A stretch of 64,000 nt of DNA from Octopus vulgaris (lineage: Eukaryota). The stretch lies in the NCBI GenBank assembly GCA_951406725.2, contig OX597837.1, forward strand, positions 23,436,001 through 23,500,000. The letters run 5' to 3'. A model generated the notes under the pieces. The model was given only the letters and a program-made list of their open reading frames with translations. It was not told the DNA's origin and searched no databases. Position numbers and translations under genes: made by a program. Of this stretch, positions 2,819-61,477 are shown piece by piece (position 1 is the stretch's first letter; each line of letters opens with the position of its first letter).

Positions 2819-3804
2819 GTATATATATATAAATAAATATGTATATATATATATATATATATATCATCATACACACACACACAATTATATAAACACACAT
2901 ATATATCAATATATATGAAAATGTGTGTGTGTGTGTGTGTGTAGAAATATTCCCTGAGATCAGAATATTTGTTTACTGTACCGAATTATAGCTGCTTGAG
3001 GCCAAATAAATAGCTGATTTATTCTGCACAGGGAAAGTTAGATTAAAGATTTATTATCTAAGTTTAATTTGGCATAAAAAAAAAGATATATTTTTATCAA
3101 CTGTTTCACAAGTGGAAAACGCAAAAACTGAAAAACACACACACACACGCACATATATATAAATATATATATACATATATGTACACAATATAATATAGTC
3201 AAATTGAATTTAAAATATCACCGAAATATCGCCAAATATTTTAAAAAGAAAAGAATGAAGAAAAGGTAAAGATATAATATTAGAGATCTTGACAATAAAT
3301 CATGTAGACAACTCTTAGTTCTTAACAAGAATGGTTTAGCTATTCCATTGCATCTATCTTTGACTTTAATTCTATGTTTTAGCAAAATACATATGTGGCT
3401 ATTGGGAATTGTGCTGAGCTTTCTCTTTTTGTTATCATTTTTATTTGCTATATTTTTGTTTTGTCTTCAGGATATCTTAATAAAATTGCATATGTCAATC
3501 TTGTAGAAAAATTTCTGATAAGGAAATAATTCAATAGGAACAAGAAAGAAAAGAAAAGAAAAGGAAAAGAACTCTTTGGGATATTTCTTTAGAAGAATTC
3601 TTATACACAAATATGTGATGAAAAGTCTGGTAGCAGTTTGATATAGGAAGACAGAGGTGGAATAAATACATTTTTTGCTTAAATATTAAGTGTTGGCGTC
3701 AGGAAGAGCATCCAGCCATAGAATACTGTATTAAGAAGTCGTGTTTTATCCAGCAAATGCCAGCTAGGAAAAAAAAATGAGAAAAAAATGTTTGTAAAAA
3801 TTAA

Positions 3805-5281: not shown

Positions 5282-6280
5282 ATCACCATCATCATCATCG
5301 TTTAATGTCAGTTTTCCATGCTGGCATTAGTTGGACAGTTTGACTGAGGTGTGGAGAGCCAGCAGCTATACCAGGCTCCAATCTGATCTAGCAATGTTTC
5401 TACAGCTGGATGCTCTTCCTAATGCCAACCATTCCAAGAGTGTAGTGGGTGCCTTTCATGTGCCACTGGCACAGGAGCCAGTTAGGTGGGCCTGACATCG
5501 ACCATGTTCAGATCGTGCTTTTTACATGCTACTGGCATGGAAGCCAGTCTAGGGATACTGGCATTGGTCACATTTGGTTGGTGATTTTTATGTGTCACCA
5601 GAACAGGAGCCAGTCAGGCAGACTTGGCATCAGTCGCGTTTGGATGGTGCTTTATACGTGCCACACTGGCACAGGAGCCAGTCAGGAGTCACTGGCCACA
5701 GCTATGATATTGGTTTTACTTGACTCAACAGGTATTCTCAAGCATATCGTATCACCTTACGCATCAAGGATATACTTAGCAAGGCTGGACATGCGTAGCT
5801 GTGATGTCACTTTAGTTGCTGGGTCATCTCAATCACAGTCTCCTGTCATTGCCTCTGTGAGGCCCAATGTTCAAAGGTCATGCTTCACCACCTCATCCAT
5901 GTCTTCCTGTTATGGTGGTGGTGGTTGCTGAGCTGGTTTTGGTGATGGTGACTGTAGAGTTTGGCATTCTGGTTGTGGCGATGTTTGTGTGCATAGTAGT
6001 TGTACTGGTGGTGGTAGTTATGGTGGTGATAGCAAATATCCACATGAGGTGTATACAGAAGGCTATTCTTCAACAGCTTCCTTCTACAGTTAGGGAGTGG
6101 CACTTCCTCACACAGCTGTCTTCATCCATCCGTAACACTTGACCATACCAGCACAGTAAACCACATCTGATGCCTCTTATGCCCAACTTTTCTCTCAGGA
6201 TGCTTACACTCAGTCATGTATGCACACTGACATTACACATCTAGCGGATCATATTAGCTTCATTTCTTTCGAGCCTATGT
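5282..6280 (-). mobile_element. Degenerate RTE LINE 3' fragment with ~4 array units and an internal foreign insertion
   Basis: Tail at 5282-5450, array at 5450-5700, ORF end (aggtcatgcttcaccacctcatccatgtcttcctg) at 5875-5910, foreign insert at ~5910-6045. Confidence 0.8.
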
Positions 6281-12039: not shown

Positions 12040-12485
12040 CATCATCATCGTTTAGTGTCCACTTTCCATGCTAGCATGGATTGGACGGTTCAACTGGGGT
12101 CTGGGAAACCAGAAGGCTGCACCAGGCCCAGTCTGATCTGGCAAAGTTTCTATGGCTGGATGCCCTTCCTAACGCCAACCACTCCGCGAGTGTAGTGGGT
12201 GCTTTTTACGTACCACCGGCACAGTTGCCAGACGAAGCTGGCAAACAGCCACGATCGGATGGTGCTTTTTACGTGCCACCGTCACGGCATGCCACTGGCA
12301 CGGCATGCCACCACATACACACACACATATATCATCATCATCATCATCATCATCATCCTTTAACATCTGCTTTCCATGCTGGCATAGATTGGACAGTTTG
12401 ATCAAAGCTGGCAAGCTGGAGAGTTGCACCAGGTTCCAGTCTGATTTAGCTTGATTTCTACAGCTAGATACCCTTCCTAATGCTA
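12040..12485 (-). mobile_element. Two adjacent RTE 3'-tail copies (12040-12300, 12332-12485)
   Basis: Both start with (atc)n followed by the reverse-complement tail. Confidence 0.8.
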
Positions 12486-15622: not shown

Positions 15623-17122
15623 TAGAATCGAGGGGCCTTAGAGTCAACCTAGCTAAAACCCAAGTACTAATAAGTAGAAAGGTAGAAAACCCACAAATAT
15701 CCTCAGGAAGATGGCCCTGCTCGATCTGTAGAAAAGGTGTAGGTAGAAACTCTATAAGATGTACCCAGTGTAAGCTATGGACACATAAGAGGTGCAGCAA
15801 TGTCAAAGGTAGGCTAACTGGGAAGATAGTTTTTGTATGTGGCAGGTGCTCTGGAGCATTGACCTCCGAAAATCTGCAGAAAACAACTTCTGTCACTTTC
15901 CGGGGGGAAAAACTAGAAGTAGTTGATAGCTTCCGCTATCTAGGTGACCAAGTCAGTAGTGGGGGTGGGTGCGCTGAAAGTGTAACTGCTAGAATAAGAA
16001 TAGCCTGGGCAAACTTTAGGGAGCTCTTACCTCTGCTGGTGACTAAAGGCCTCTCGCTCAGAGTAAAAGGCAGACTGTATGATGCATGTGTACGAACAGC
16101 TATGCTACATGGCAGTGAAACATGGGCCGTGACTGCTGAGGACATGCGTAAGCTCGTGAGGAACGAAGCCAGTATGCTCCAATGGATGTGTAATGTCAGT
16201 GTACTTACTCGACAGAGCGTTAGTACCTTGAGAGAAATGTTGTACCTAAGAAGCATCAGTTGTTGTGTGCAAGAGAGACGATTGCGCTGGTATGGTCATG
16301 TGGCGAGAATGGATGAAGATAGGTGTGTGAGAAAGTGCCAATCCCTAGCAGTTGAGGGAACCCGTGGAAGAGGTAGACCCAGGAAAACCTGGGACGAGGT
16401 GGTGAAGCACGACCTTTGGACGTTAGGTCTCACCATGGAAATGACTAGAGACCGAGACCTATGGAAGTATGCTGTGCGTGAGAAGACCCGGCAAGACTAG
16501 TGAAGCCATAATCCGTGGCCCCTACCTGGGACGTAGTCAGTCCACCTGTGCATACCTTCCTTCTTGTGACACTTGTGAAGACCTGTTGAGGCAAGTGAGA
16601 ATCGAATCGTATCGAATCAAATCGAACCAAATCAAAATAGATGAACATCAATGGAATTTGTATCCTTGTGGTACCAGTGCCGGTGGCACATAAGAAAACC
16701 ATCCGAACGTGACCGTAGTCAGTACCGCAATGACTGGCCTCCGTGCTGAGGGCACGTAACAAACACCATCCGAGTGTGGCCGTCCGCCAGCCTCGTCTGG
16801 CACCTGTGTCGGTGACACATAAGAAAACACCATCCGAGCGTGGCCGTCAGCCAGCCTCGTCTGGCACCTGTGTCGGTGGCACATAAAAAACACCATCTGA
16901 GCGTGGCCGTCTGCCAGGCTCGTCTGGCACCTGTGTCGGTGGCACATAAAATCACCCACTACACTCTCGGAGTGGTTGGCGTTAGGAAGGGCATCCAGCT
17001 GTAGAAACACTGCCACATCTGACTGGCCTGGTGCAGCCTTCGGGCTTCCCAGACCCCAGTTGAACCGTCCAACCCATGCTAGCATGGAAAGCGGACGTTA
17101 AACGATGATGATGATGATGATG
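15623..17122 (+). mobile_element. RTE LINE 3' fragment (open PHD/C-terminal frame, 5 array units, tail)
   Basis: C-terminal part of ORF 15238-16500 (ESRGLRVNLAKT...PHD...FRYLG...RGRPRKTW), close to 59025-59903. Array at 16670-16960; (GAT)n tail at 17104-17122. Confidence 0.92.
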
Positions 17123-17153
<31 letters not shown>

Positions 17154-20209: not shown

Positions 20210-20778
20210 AAGGCGGCAAGCTGGCAGAAACGTTAGTGCACTGAGCGAAATGCTTAGTGGTATTTCGTCTGCCGTTACGTTCTGAGTTCAAATTCTGCCG
20301 AGGTTGACTTTGCCTTTCATCCTTTCGGGGTCGATTAAATAAGTATCAGTTACGCACTGGGGTCGATATAATCGACTTAATCCGTTTGTCTGTCCTTGTT
20401 TATCCTCTCTGTGTTTAGCCCCTTGTGGGTAGTAAAGAAATAAGTATTTCGTCTGCCATTATGTTCTGAAGTCGACTTTGCCTTTCATCCTTTCGGCGGT
20501 CAATAAATAAAGTACCAGTTACGCACTGGGGTCGATATAATCGACTTAATCCGTTTGTCTGTCCTTGTTTGTCCTCTCTGTGTTTAGCTCTTTGTGGGTA
20601 GTAAAGAAATAGGTATTTCATCTGCCATTATGTTCTGAGGTCGACTTTGCCTTTCATCTTTTCGGGGTCAATAAATAAATTACCAGTTACACATTGGGGT
20701 CGATGTAATCGACTTAATCCCTTTGTCTGTCCTTGTTTGTCCCCTCTATGTTTAGCCCCATGTGAGCAATAAAGAAAT
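20210..20778 (+). mobile_element. SINE family M with its body tandemly triplicated
   Basis: gtatttc.tctgcc...cccttgtgggtagtaaagaaat repeats start at ~20260, 20444 and 20613. Confidence 0.85.
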
Positions 20779-21132
20779 ATATATATATATTTCACTTTGT
20801 ACTTCGAAGAGATGCATAGTACCAGGATTATCAATTTGAGTCAACTATAGCAGACTACGCCAAATTCTTGTCTGAATATCTGCATAAGTAGAGTCTGGAC
20901 CACCTAGTTCCAAGATGTGGAGGATGGACATGGATTCTTCTGGATGAGCAGTAGTGACGGTGTGGGTGGTGCAAGCATACTTTTTGCAGAAATATGGTGC
21001 TGTTGCAATGTAAAAAAGCACCTGTTATGCTCTGTAAAGTGGTTGGCATTAGGAAGGGCATTGAGCAGTAGAGACCATGCCAAAGCAGTCTTCTGGCTCA
21101 GCAGCTCCTGTTAAACCATCCAGTGGACAAAA

Positions 21133-57444: not shown

Positions 57445-57678
57445 AAGGTGGCATGCTGGCAGAAACGTTAGTACGCCGGGCAAAATGCTTAGCGGTATTT
57501 CGTCTGCCATTATGTTGTGAGTTCAAATTCTTCCGAGGTCGACTTTGCCTTTCATCCTTTCGGGGTCGATAAATTAAGTACCAGTTACGCACTGGGGTCG
57601 ATGTAATCGACTTAATACCTATGTCTGTCCTTGTTTGTCGCCTCTGTGTTTAGCCCCTTGTGGGTAATAAAGAAATAG
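57445..57678 (+). mobile_element. SINE family M
   Basis: Full head, B-box-like gagttcaaatt, core and aataaagaaat tail. Confidence 0.85.
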
Positions 57679-57680
57679 GT

Positions 57681-57967: not shown

Positions 57968-59903
57968 ATAGCCAGAGGGGAAGCAGATAAGAAAAAATTT
58001 GCCAATGTTCTGCGCCGTGAGGACCAAAGACTGGAGGTATTTCGCGTTGCAAGACAGTGTGTGAGAGAGAATTGTGATGTGGTGGGAGAGAAGTGTGTTC
58101 GCATGGAAGATGGTTCACTTGCGCTAAACGAGGATGCAAAGAGAGAGGCTTGGAGATGCCACTATGAAAGGTTGCTGAATAAAGAAAATGAATGGGATAA
58201 AGAGAGTCTGCCGAACGTTGACCCAACAGAGGGACCAGCTATCAGGGTTGATAGTTCCTTAGTAGCTAAGGCAATTAGAAGCATGAAGACAGGGAAAGCC
58301 CCAGGCCCATCAGGTATCACTGCAGAGATGCTCAAAATATCTGGTAGTGTCGGCTATAGCCTAGTCACCTGTATAGTTAATCAGGTGATACTTGAAGGAG
58401 TCATACCCAATGACTGGTGTAGCAGCATAATAGTCAACTGCTACAAAGGTAAAGGTGATGCCCTAGATACAAATAATTACAGAGGTATCAAGCTGTTGGA
58501 TCAGGTGATGAAGGTTACAGAGAGGGTCATAAGCCAACTAATTAGAGAGAGAGTTAGTTTAGATGAGATGCAGTTTGGTTTCGTGCCAGGGAAAAGTACC
58601 ACTGATGCTATATTCCTGGTAAGGCAGCTGCAGGAGAAATACCTAGCCAAAGATAAGGCCCTGTACCTGGCTTTTGTTGACATGGAGAAAGCCTTCGACA
58701 GGGTCCCCCGATCCCTCATATGGTGGTCAATGAGGAAACTAGGAATAGAAGAATGGTTAGTGAGAGCTGTGCAAGCCATGTACAGGGACGCTGCTAGTAA
58801 GGTGAGGGTTGGAAATGAGTACAGTGAAGAATTCCGGGTAGAGGTAGGGGTCCACCAAGGCTCAGTCCTCAGCCCCCTCCTATTTATCATAGTCCTCCAG
58901 GCAATAACGGAGGAATTCAAGACAGGATGCCCCTGGGAGCTCCTCTATGCTGATGACCTTGCTCTAATTGCTGAGTCATTATCAGAACTGGAGAAGAAGT
59001 TTCAGGTGTGGAAGCATGGTTTAGAATCGAAGGGCCTTAGAGTCAACCTAGCTAAAACCAAAGTCGTAATAAGTAGGAAGGTAGACAAATCACAAACGCC
59101 TTCAGGTAGATGGCCCTGCTCGATCTGTAGAAAAGGTGTAGGTAGAAACTCTATAAGATGCACCAAGTGTAAGCTATGGACACATAAGAGGTGCAGCAAT
59201 GTCATAGGAAGGCTAACTAGGAAGATGGTTTTTGTATGTGGCAGATGCTCGGGAGCATTAACCTCTGAAAATCTGCAGAAAACAACTTCCGTCACTTTCC
59301 AGGGGGAAAAACTAGAAAGTAGTTGATAGCTTCCGTTATCTTGGTGACCAAGTCAGTAGTGGGGGTGGGTGTGCTGAAAGTGTAACGGCTAGAGTAAGAA
59401 TAGCCTGGGCAAAGTTTAGGGAGCTCTTACCTCTGTTGGTGACTAAAGGCCTCTCGCTCAGAGTAAAAGGCAGACTGTATGATGCATGTGTACGAACAGC
59501 CATGCTACATGGCAGTGAAACATGGGCCGTGACTGCTGAGGACATGCGTAAGCTCGCGAGAAATGAAGCTAGTATGCTCCGTTGGATGTGTAATGTCAGT
59601 GTTCATAGTCGACAGAGTGTAAGTACCTTGAGAGAAAAGTTGGACCTAAGAGGAATCAGATGTTGTGTGCAAGAGAGACGATTGCGCTGGTATGGTCATG
59701 TGGTGAGAATGGATGAAGATAGGTGTGTGAAAAAGTGCCACACCCTGGCAGTTGAGGGGACCTGTGGAAGAGGTAGACCCAGGAAAACCTGGGTCGAGGT
59801 GGTGAAGCACGACCTTCGAACTCTAGGTCTCACCAAGGAAATGACCAGAGACCGAGACCTATGGAAGTATGCTGTGCGTGAGAAGACCCGGCAAGACCAG
59901 TGA
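57968..59903 (+). pseudogene. Frameshifted, 5'-truncated LINE ORF2 (RT + PHD); endonuclease domain absent
   Basis: Homology starts abruptly after a (TA)/(CA) microsatellite at ~57968 (IARGEADKKKF...). The N-terminus of the 535-aa ORF is simple repeat. Single +1 frameshift near 59317. Confidence 0.88.
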
Positions 59904-59950
59904 GAACAATCAAAATCAAATCATATATCAGAAAGCAGGGGTTAAGTGAC

Positions 59951-60808
59951 CCATCTGTTCGTGTCCGCTGTCAGCCTCGTCTGGCACCCGTGCCGGTGAT
60001 ACGTAAAAGCACCATTCGCTCATGGCCGTTTGCCAGCTCTGCCTGGCCCCGTGTCGGTGGCACGTAAAAGCACCATCCGTTCGTGTTCGTTTCCAGCCTC
60101 GCCTGGCCCCGTGCCGGTGACACGTAAAAGCACCGTCCGTTCGTGGCCATTGGCCAGCTCTGTCTGGCCCCGTGTCGGTGGCACGTAAAAGCACCATCCG
60201 TTCGTGGCCGTTTGCCAGCTCTGTCTGGCCCCGTGTCGGTGGCACGTAAAAGCACCATCCGTCCGTGTCCGTTGCCAGCCTCAGCTGGCCCCCGTGCCGG
60301 TGACACGTAAAAGCACCGTCCGCTCGTGGCCGTTTGCCAGCTCTGTCTGGCAACCGTGTCGGTGGCACGTAAAAGCACCATCCGTTCGCGTCCGTTGCCA
60401 GCCTCGGCTGGCCCCCGTGCCGGTGACACGTAAAAGCACCATCCGTTCGTGGCCGTTTGCCAGCTCTGTCTGGCCCCGTGTCGGTGGCACGTAAAAGCAC
60501 CATCCGTCCATGTCCGTTGCCAGCCTTGGCTGGCCCCCGTGCCGGTGACACGTAAAAGCACCGTCTGCTCATGGCCGTTTGCCAGCTCTGTCTGGCAACC
60601 GTGTCGGTGGCACGTAAAAGCACCACCCGTTCGCGTCCGTTGCCAGCCTCGGCTGGCCCCCGTGCCGGTGACACGTAAAAGCACCGTCCGTTCGTGGCCG
60701 GTTGCCAGCTCTGTCTGGCCCGTGTCGGTGGCACGTAAAAGCACCATCCGTTCGTGGCCGTTCGCCAGCTCTGTCTGGCACCTGTGCAGGTGGCACGTAA
60801 AAACACCC
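59951..60808 (+). repeat. Tandem array of 14 ~61-bp units in the LINE 3' UTR
   Basis: acgtaaaa recurs at 60001, 60062, 60122, 60183, 60244, 60305, 60367, 60428, 60489, 60550, 60612, 60673, 60733 and 60795 (spacing 60-62). Each unit has gccag-N6-ctggc and gtgyc-ggt-grcac stems. Confidence 0.95.
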
Positions 60809-61477
60809 ACTACACTCGCGGAGTGGTTGGCATTAGGAAGGGCATCCAGCCGTAGAAACACTGCCAGATCTGACTGGGCCTGACGAAGCCTTCCAGCTTC
60901 ACAGACCCCAGTTGACCCGTCCAACCCATGCTAGCATGGAAAACGGACGCTAAACGATGATGATGATGATGATGATGATGATCTAAAGAAACGTAATCTG
61001 TTGGAACACACAGCAATGCATTGAAATATTTTAAAATTGCATCCAAGGATTATTATTGTTATTACTAAAGACACACACACACATATATATACACATCAGA
61101 AACATGTCATGCAAAAATATTCAGAGTTGATAGTAGACATTAATAAAGTAGATTGTCAACAACTCTTACCATTCATCACAAGGCAATATGTAAACATATT
61201 TTATTAACCATGAAGATATCTATAAATAATAATTACACCTATATTGACATCTATATATATACATATATATATACACACACATATATATATACATATACAT
61301 ATATATGTATATATATATACATATATATACATATACATACATATATATATATATATCCATTTATCTATCAATTTTTCGATCGATCTCTATTTATCTATAT
61401 CAATATATTCATATGTAGTAAATGTACATATATATACATATGTATATATATATATACATACATATATAAATAAATAA

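Follow-up and report, generated by a model that had tools for sequence, protein, structure and literature searches.

The 3′ untranslated region (UTR) of S1, a young octopus LINE subfamily, holds a tandem array of about 61-nt units that is probably under selection, judging from how substitutions are spread over its columns. We examined a 14-unit array of this kind in a 64,000-nt stretch of Octopus vulgaris DNA (the window), where it belongs to a copy that is itself dead, since its 5′ end is truncated (about 57969) and its ORF carries a frameshift near 59320. The array is not specific to this locus but is the subfamily-wide S1 3′ UTR, and it grew by nested duplication. The element and its array are laid out as follows (window coordinates):

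57969–60982, + strand: 5′-truncated member of the young subfamily S1, an RTE-like LINE with a single ORF, 99.2% identical over 1975 nt to L042, a copy with an intact ORF
57969–59903, + strand: 3′ part of the ORF, covering the reverse transcriptase (RT), a PHD-like finger and the C-terminal region, with a frameshift near 59320
59951–60807, + strand: 14-unit array, corresponding to the 15-unit subfamily layout minus unit 14
60196–60685, + strand: higher-order duplication of units 5–8 and 9–12 as two 245-nt blocks, identical in the subfamily majority
60397–60412, + strand: hairpin H1 of unit 8, GCCAG-N6-CTGGC, with a loop of 4–11 nt in other subfamilies
60416–60440, + strand: core of unit 8, with stem CGTG/CACG, GGTG, TAAAA and CACC, predicted to form an H-type pseudoknot or one half of an A:B duplex between units
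60746–60807, + strand: last unit, whose motif columns are nearly unchanged across subfamilies and which is predicted to be unpaired with other units in the window copy

The intact relative P0003 encodes one 1047-aa frame with an APE endonuclease (PF03372), an RT (PF00078) and a PHD-like finger. No second frame of at least 200 aa lies upstream of the ORF in the three loci examined (L041–L043), which indicates a single-ORF element lacking ORF1. Intact frames of 1046–1047 aa were present in three of the 13 copies that were extended; by its frames, S1 is thus of the autonomous type, unlike ORF-less bipartite elements. A protein search yielded 1510 homologues among 7989 scored candidates, and since the best 120, which are 50–60% identical, are mostly unnamed and bear no clade names, we call the element RTE-like from its architecture and from the general features of the clade. 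A microsatellite tail follows the terminal stem-loop in the S1 family, and all sister copies shown end in (GAT)n. Clear target-site duplications were absent from the window copy and from the 12 copies inspected; young copies (the 57969 and 60982 ends and L007–L030) were mostly inserted in (TA)n or AT-rich DNA. Three copies (L275, L287 and L126) apparently start at their 5′ side with an inverted or rearranged piece of their own element. The 5′ UTR of the S1 family also has an internal repeat, and in some copies about 174 or 134 nt of it are duplicated in tandem (L042:4215–4860; G000:C45:35323–37659, C8:39674728–39676720 and C14:37364352–37365639). Elsewhere in the window, 20300–20779 and 57460–57680 hold a SINE-like repeat, present at 20300 as three tandem copies (169 nt), which may be of Deu/Nin type.

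Unit calling divided 59951–60807 into 14 units of 60–63 nt each, in the order aBaBBABABABABB, and TRF returned a period of 61 (14.0 copies, score 1107) together with one of 245. The array lies between the ORF stop (59903) and a conserved tail of about 150 nt that ends in (GAT)9 at 60956–60982. An earlier, sequence-only reading of the same DNA had placed 14 units between the stop of what it called ORF2 and the conserved tail, with two unit types in the same A/B order, and both statements are borne out. The duplicated block of about 245 bp that it described is real, but the exact four-unit repeat consists of units 5–8 and 9–12 of the 15-unit layout and not of units 6–9 and 10–13. Its counts of one, two, three or about five units in sister copies are likewise correct, except that the copies at 12205, 15510 and 45170 start inside the array, so that their low numbers reflect 5′ truncation and not short arrays; a further family copy at about 5450–5660 was missing from its list. 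The string cgtaaaa.cacc, which it took to be invariant, is so in S1 only; other subfamilies read CATAAAA and similar, and some internal units lack CACC or the stem. We concur that the array is not CRISPR: the variable parts differ by 0–15 positions and are identical between units 5–8 and 9–12. A CRISPR array was rejected on the ground that these parts are related among units, with no unique foreign spacers between identical repeats. We regarded the long minus-strand frames of 293 and 319 aa across the array as by-products of the GC-rich repeat.

We searched the G000 genome (2.8 Gb) for further loci, scoring 40 of 5897 candidates and fetching 30. All 30 fetched S1 loci carry the array in one basic order, with 13 units in eight copies, 14 in six, 15 in 11, 17 in two, 19 in two and 25 in one; the two ways of counting disagree by a single unit in a few copies, and copies with 13–15 units are favoured because candidates were ranked by their likeness to a 14-unit query. 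Since the same array recurs in 30 of 30 loci on many contigs, mis-assembly of the 14-unit array is unlikely. Fifteen units make up the most common layout, in which units 5–8 equal 9–12; the window copy lacks unit 14. Each copy carries about 0.5% private change, and shared variants define a sub-lineage whose members have 13, 13, 13, 17 and 19 units, so that a source with 13 units has spread as well. The number of units is not tightly fixed: the three intact ORFs are followed by 13, 13 and 19–20 of them, and other subfamilies have 1–7.

Five further searches recovered subfamilies that each have their own fixed array: a very young one with five cores, older ones with three, about five and one core, and one in which core and tail domain repeat together with a period of about 98 nt. 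Younger subfamilies carry more units, older ones 1–7 per copy. An evenly placed random sample of 1.0 Mb of the genome contained 68 tails with 0–7 units; long arrays are therefore a small young fraction of a very large family. A 1.34-Mb sample gave 89 matches to the tail motif, two to the S1-type tail and none to the S1 B-unit motif; the 89 matches correspond to roughly 190,000 tail copies genome-wide, and the copy numbers for S1 are only rough. The five-core subfamily (window 16500–17125, + strand; L223–L242) is younger than S1, with 40 of 40 scored matches at least 99% identical over about 625 nt; one of its units has kept the stem and lost GGTG. The 98-nt module (L303–L322) has a C at core position 10 and is accompanied by a long tail hairpin of different sequence that is fully compensated. 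In L142 (+ strand), a block of about 150 nt that includes cores is repeated three times before position 3623. Contigs assembled from sequencing runs of organisms A and B contained short pieces of the element, including the S1 ORF–array junction, and those of C and D contained array-like pieces.

We then asked how substitutions are distributed within the unit. Copy-level pair counts are dominated by CpG decay, and we therefore used unit types drawn from subfamily majorities, 39 distinct ones (43 before duplicate removal), a set that leaves out one-member subfamilies and groups S4, S6, S7 and S16. With CpG columns excluded, parsimony assigned 21 changes to 23 paired columns and 69 to 18 linker and loop columns (p = 7.5e-7) across source lineages, a contrast that is inflated in that columns are motif-anchored and non-independent and units recombine. 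It persisted among internal S1 units (4 changes in 28 motif columns versus 19 in 18 linker/loop columns; p = 7e-4 allowing for the dead-copy ratio), among the nine last units (1 in 28 versus 20 in 18), with S1 left out (25 in 28 versus 47 in 18; p = 0.002) and in families with at least 19 copies. As a control we used dead copies, which mutate without selection. In four families they showed 135 changes in 7230 motif positions versus 112 in 4247 linker and loop positions (1.87% versus 2.64%), a ratio of 0.71, compared with about 0.24 in source lineages, or about four times less change in the motif. Because the source-lineage ratio is far below that of dead copies, selection is supported, internal units included, in keeping with the earlier proposal that the array is selected and not a neutral minisatellite. 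The decayed unit types, which have lost CACC, GGTG or the stem, number about 5 of 39 and are all internal; single units are therefore dispensable.

These counts bear directly on the possibility that the source gene contains a neutral minisatellite in which slippage makes the units, and conversion together with palindrome repair keeps the stems. Several observations would suit such a history, namely the loose unit number, the recurrent duplications of many periods, the decayed internal units, the lack of significant covariation, and an A/B complementarity that amounts to a single event for which a template switch is possible. It does not account well for TAAAA and CACC, which are not palindromic and show no change in nine columns among S1 internal units, and dead copies, which undergo these DNA processes as well, reach a ratio of just 0.71. 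Nor, once CpG is set aside, are substitutions spread evenly, as a neutral minisatellite would have them. We consider neutrality distinctly unlikely.

Each unit combines the hairpin H1 with the core. The arms of H1 accumulated 5 changes in 10 columns, compared with 26 in the 6 columns of the loop, and they stay fixed while loop length varies from 4 to 11 nt among subfamilies. In the core, conservation covers GGTG (the loop of the earlier reading extended by one base), TAAAA and CACC, while core position 5 and the base before CACC have changed seven times each. This conservation of GGTG and CACC beside variable neighbours fits a pseudoknot better than a second hairpin. The predicted fold is of the H type, with a stem CGTG./.CACG, GGTG paired with CACC, a first loop of 1–2 nt and an A-rich last loop; its crossing stems were paired in 87% and 94% of cells in the 25 real copies from which the structure was derived. 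The hairpin gtgyc-ggt-grcac proposed by the sequence-only reading reached a pairing probability of at most 0.02 within units 1–13 in the whole-UTR fold, and we would replace the two-hairpin anatomy by a hairpin plus a predicted pseudoknot or cross-unit duplex.

The check for stem covariation gave no significant signal in the same 25 copies, with a score of 0.059 against 0.064 for shuffled data and 421 of 500 shuffles as high; 1 of 23 pairs had changed on both sides, in a sample with little variation. The 39 unit types contain no compensatory change in the GCCAG/CTGGC stem, and we found none in the GGTG/CACC pairing. Single units fold no better than shuffles on the + strand (z of −0.72 and +0.33). 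Cores with C at position 10 (n = 48) have lost the 4:10 pair in 48 of 48 cases, and a pair of position 10 with G is possible in 43. Their outer stem pair is A:T (17) or T:A (12) instead of C:G, and the junction could shift by one pair. The G before CACC was not significantly more fixed in these cores (30/36 versus 230/304, p = 0.41).

Letters conserved without compensatory change are what protein sites on DNA would give, and the array might accordingly act as DNA, with clusters of transcription-factor sites serving as an enhancer or as a 3′ or antisense promoter, a downstream analogue of mouse L1 monomers. As those are presented in the available part of PMC9022269, both systems have subfamily-specific tandem units, variable in number and more numerous in younger subfamilies, and parts of the 5′ UTR are also duplicated in some copies of our family. 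However, the mouse monomers are 5′ promoters acting as DNA, whereas the S1 array lies behind the stop codon, with units of 61–68 nt and predicted RNA folds. Other observations also speak against a DNA-level role: the spacing of the H1 arms varies from 4 to 11 nt, the outer core pair occurs in three Watson–Crick states across families, and the adjoining tail carries compensatory changes on the + strand. A DNA-level array seems to us rather improbable, and we judge it likely that selection acts on the RNA.

When the whole UTR was folded without pseudoknots, cores paired across units, and every partner above a probability of 0.1 was of the opposite type. Duplex energies were −24.1 kcal/mol for B:A, −20.8 for B:B and −11.9 for A:A. 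The two core changes that define A and B weaken pairing within the unit and are complementary between units; the last unit was predicted to be free of cross-unit pairing in the window copy. Cross-unit duplexes would exclude the pseudoknot. The A/B complementarity is best counted as one event and could be of template-switch origin.

The core has the consensus GTG..GGTG..CAC.TAAAA.GCACC, about 26 nt, and in many units GCACC stands on both of its flanks. An old copy (L039:700–1120) consists there of about ten core-only tandem repeats of 26 nt, the oldest subfamily has a decayed core in the sequence 5′ of its core (p = 0.0002), and in four other subfamilies the H1 region resembles the core (p = 0.0004–0.055). 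Thus, the array grew by nested duplication, from 26 nt through 61–68 nt and the A/B pair to the 245-nt block, and H1 probably derives from a decayed copy of the core. Duplication periods in the family as a whole are 26, about 27, 61–68, 98, 122 and 245 nt. Slippage at the GCACC direct repeats flanking the core may have produced the repeated core duplication.

Beyond the array, the tail of the window copy comprises further domains:

60813–60825, + strand: small hairpin CACTC-N3-GAGTG
60825–60866, + strand: second predicted pseudoknot domain of 42 nt, with counterparts in a related LINE's 5′ UTR and in SINE-like elements from other organisms
60872–60913, + strand: long hairpin with compensatory changes, three columns having changed on both sides among 11 subfamily majorities
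60917–60949, + strand: terminal stem-loop, the ancestral 3′ end, which relatives in other organisms also have, with a homologous stretch in L157, L364 and L363
60956–60982, + strand: (GAT)9 tail

Compensatory changes thus occur in both the long hairpin and the terminal stem (11 subfamily majorities). The 42-nt domain was found in six stretches from prokaryote bins that are evidently animal-type repeat DNA. In L363 (a single contig) it occupies a place in the 5′ UTR immediately ahead of a related frame; in L364 it precedes the same terminal stem-loop, in L368 it follows a tRNA-like head, and it is also present in L205. The 5′ UTR of the S1 family lacks this domain, and no tRNA head was found within the 64-kb window. 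The core itself was absent from 79 loci with related frames on metagenome contigs; the protein family, therefore, does not need it. The microsatellite tail begins within about 110 nt of the stop in 16 of the 17 closest relatives listed (26 of the 79 loci being listed). Together, these features suggest that the tail is a captured bipartite end, an RTE 5′-UTR domain plus an RTE 3′ end placed behind an intact ORF. The presence of animal-type RTE/SINE sequence in at least four prokaryote bins (L363–L368) points to contamination or mis-joined contigs. By eye, some bivalve V-SINE tails in the available part of the PMC4824008 supplement look core-like, ending in a stem that is followed by TAAAA/TTAAA and what may be a pseudoknot partner. 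We could not confirm a suspected likeness to the Meta-domain of SINEs, and two pattern scans of viral contigs gave no match. A hammerhead-like CTGACGA in the tail of the window copy was rejected because it is S1-specific, other subfamilies reading CTGGTGCA.

The position of the 42-nt domain in L363 matters for one reading at the RNA level, in which the folds serve as a module for host factors and stabilise, localise or aid translation of a LINE RNA ending in (GAU)n. Such a module would draw on the same motif conservation data, and a neighbouring pseudoknot domain just before the frame in a 5′ UTR would suit translation control. Given that this is a single 5′-UTR example and that nothing in Rfam matches, we hold a host-factor module to be unlikely.

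Viral nuclease-resistant repeats offer a parallel to pseudoknot-like units arranged in tandem in a 3′ UTR, and the array might similarly be a processing module made of ribozymes, nuclease blocks or a phased source of small RNAs, as the sequence-only reading had also envisaged. RTE 5′ ends are reported, in the available part of PMC5786205, to carry ribozymes. Our Rfam scan, however, found no ribozyme family at E values up to 10, its one match being at chance level (NLPC-P60, 18.6 bits versus 53.7). The 5′ ends of 80 copies truncated in the unit region were not phased either: 14 of the 80 apparent ends lay at the core edge compared with 12.4 expected (p = 0.36), in a set where some 5′ starts are subfamily mis-assignments. 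The processing idea thus gained no support from the Rfam scan or from truncation phasing, and we rate it as very improbable.

The reading we favour, though tentatively and at somewhat less than an even chance, is that the unit array is a selected RNA module offering extra grip to the element's own ORF protein. An ancestor may have gained a SINE-like 3′ end composed of the core, an RTE 5′-UTR domain and an RTE terminal stem-loop. If each unit forms a hairpin and a small pseudoknot, as predicted, the ORF protein would gain added binding sites, and sources whose units kept the fold would have been copied better; the extra units would be partly redundant, with upstream A and B cores able to pair mutually. 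The element's own protein is a candidate partner that we propose with reserve; the sequence-only reading had named an RT/PHD or host-protein binding platform among its possibilities. A precedent exists in R2, where a 3′ UTR pseudoknot of a LINE is bound by the element's protein (PMC12222951, as far as its available text goes). The two non-LTR retrotransposons share a pseudoknotted 3′ UTR element, predicted in S1; R2 has a single such element, with a solved structure, and belongs to another clade; the comparison made here is one of kind. A more elaborate scheme is doubtful in our estimation: the captured SINE-like end would be a multivalent RNA platform acting by dose, subfamilies would have been selected for more units, pairing between neighbouring cores would keep A and B, and the higher-order fold would tune protein loading or RNA fate.

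Little is known about the way in which LINEs that lack an ORF1 protein choose and package their own RNA. RTE-clade LINEs are abundant in octopus (PMC8967140, PMC13282606 and PMC9115989, in their available parts) and likewise have a single ORF with APE endonuclease and RT, a microsatellite tail and many 5′-truncated copies. In RTE-2_OV, as given in the available part of PMC9115989, the microsatellite begins at the ORF end, whereas in the S1 family the ORF is followed by a structured UTR that can reach about 1 kb or more. RTE-derived SINEs and non-autonomous LINEs join a piece of RTE 5′ UTR to an RTE 3′ end (Kojima 2018, PMC5786205, available part), the same design as in the S1 tail and in L364–L368. 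These bipartite elements are non-autonomous; in S1, by contrast, the joined piece stands behind an intact ORF, and its own 5′ UTR lacks that piece. The motif string did not turn up in the available part of the PMC5786205 supplement, where line breaks could conceal it, and the available part of the paper describes no array. Our literature search, including the available portions of PMC4758252, PMC4824008 and PMC6007223, found no description of the array, for which Repbase, Dfam or octopus repeat libraries may hold a consensus. Thus, the S1 array is a structured LINE 3′ UTR of a known kind, the array itself being without a description that we could find in the literature.

If, as suggested here, an autonomous LINE has taken up parts of 5′ UTRs or SINE bodies into its 3′ UTR, this would be the reverse of the usual LINE-to-SINE direction. 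Even if unit number proves to be neutral, the family remains a clear record of the birth of a higher-order minisatellite inside a retrotransposon. Within a single genome, it also provides a natural gradation from 1 to 25 copies of the same conserved module in the 3′ UTR, on which the effects of dose and structure can be tested.
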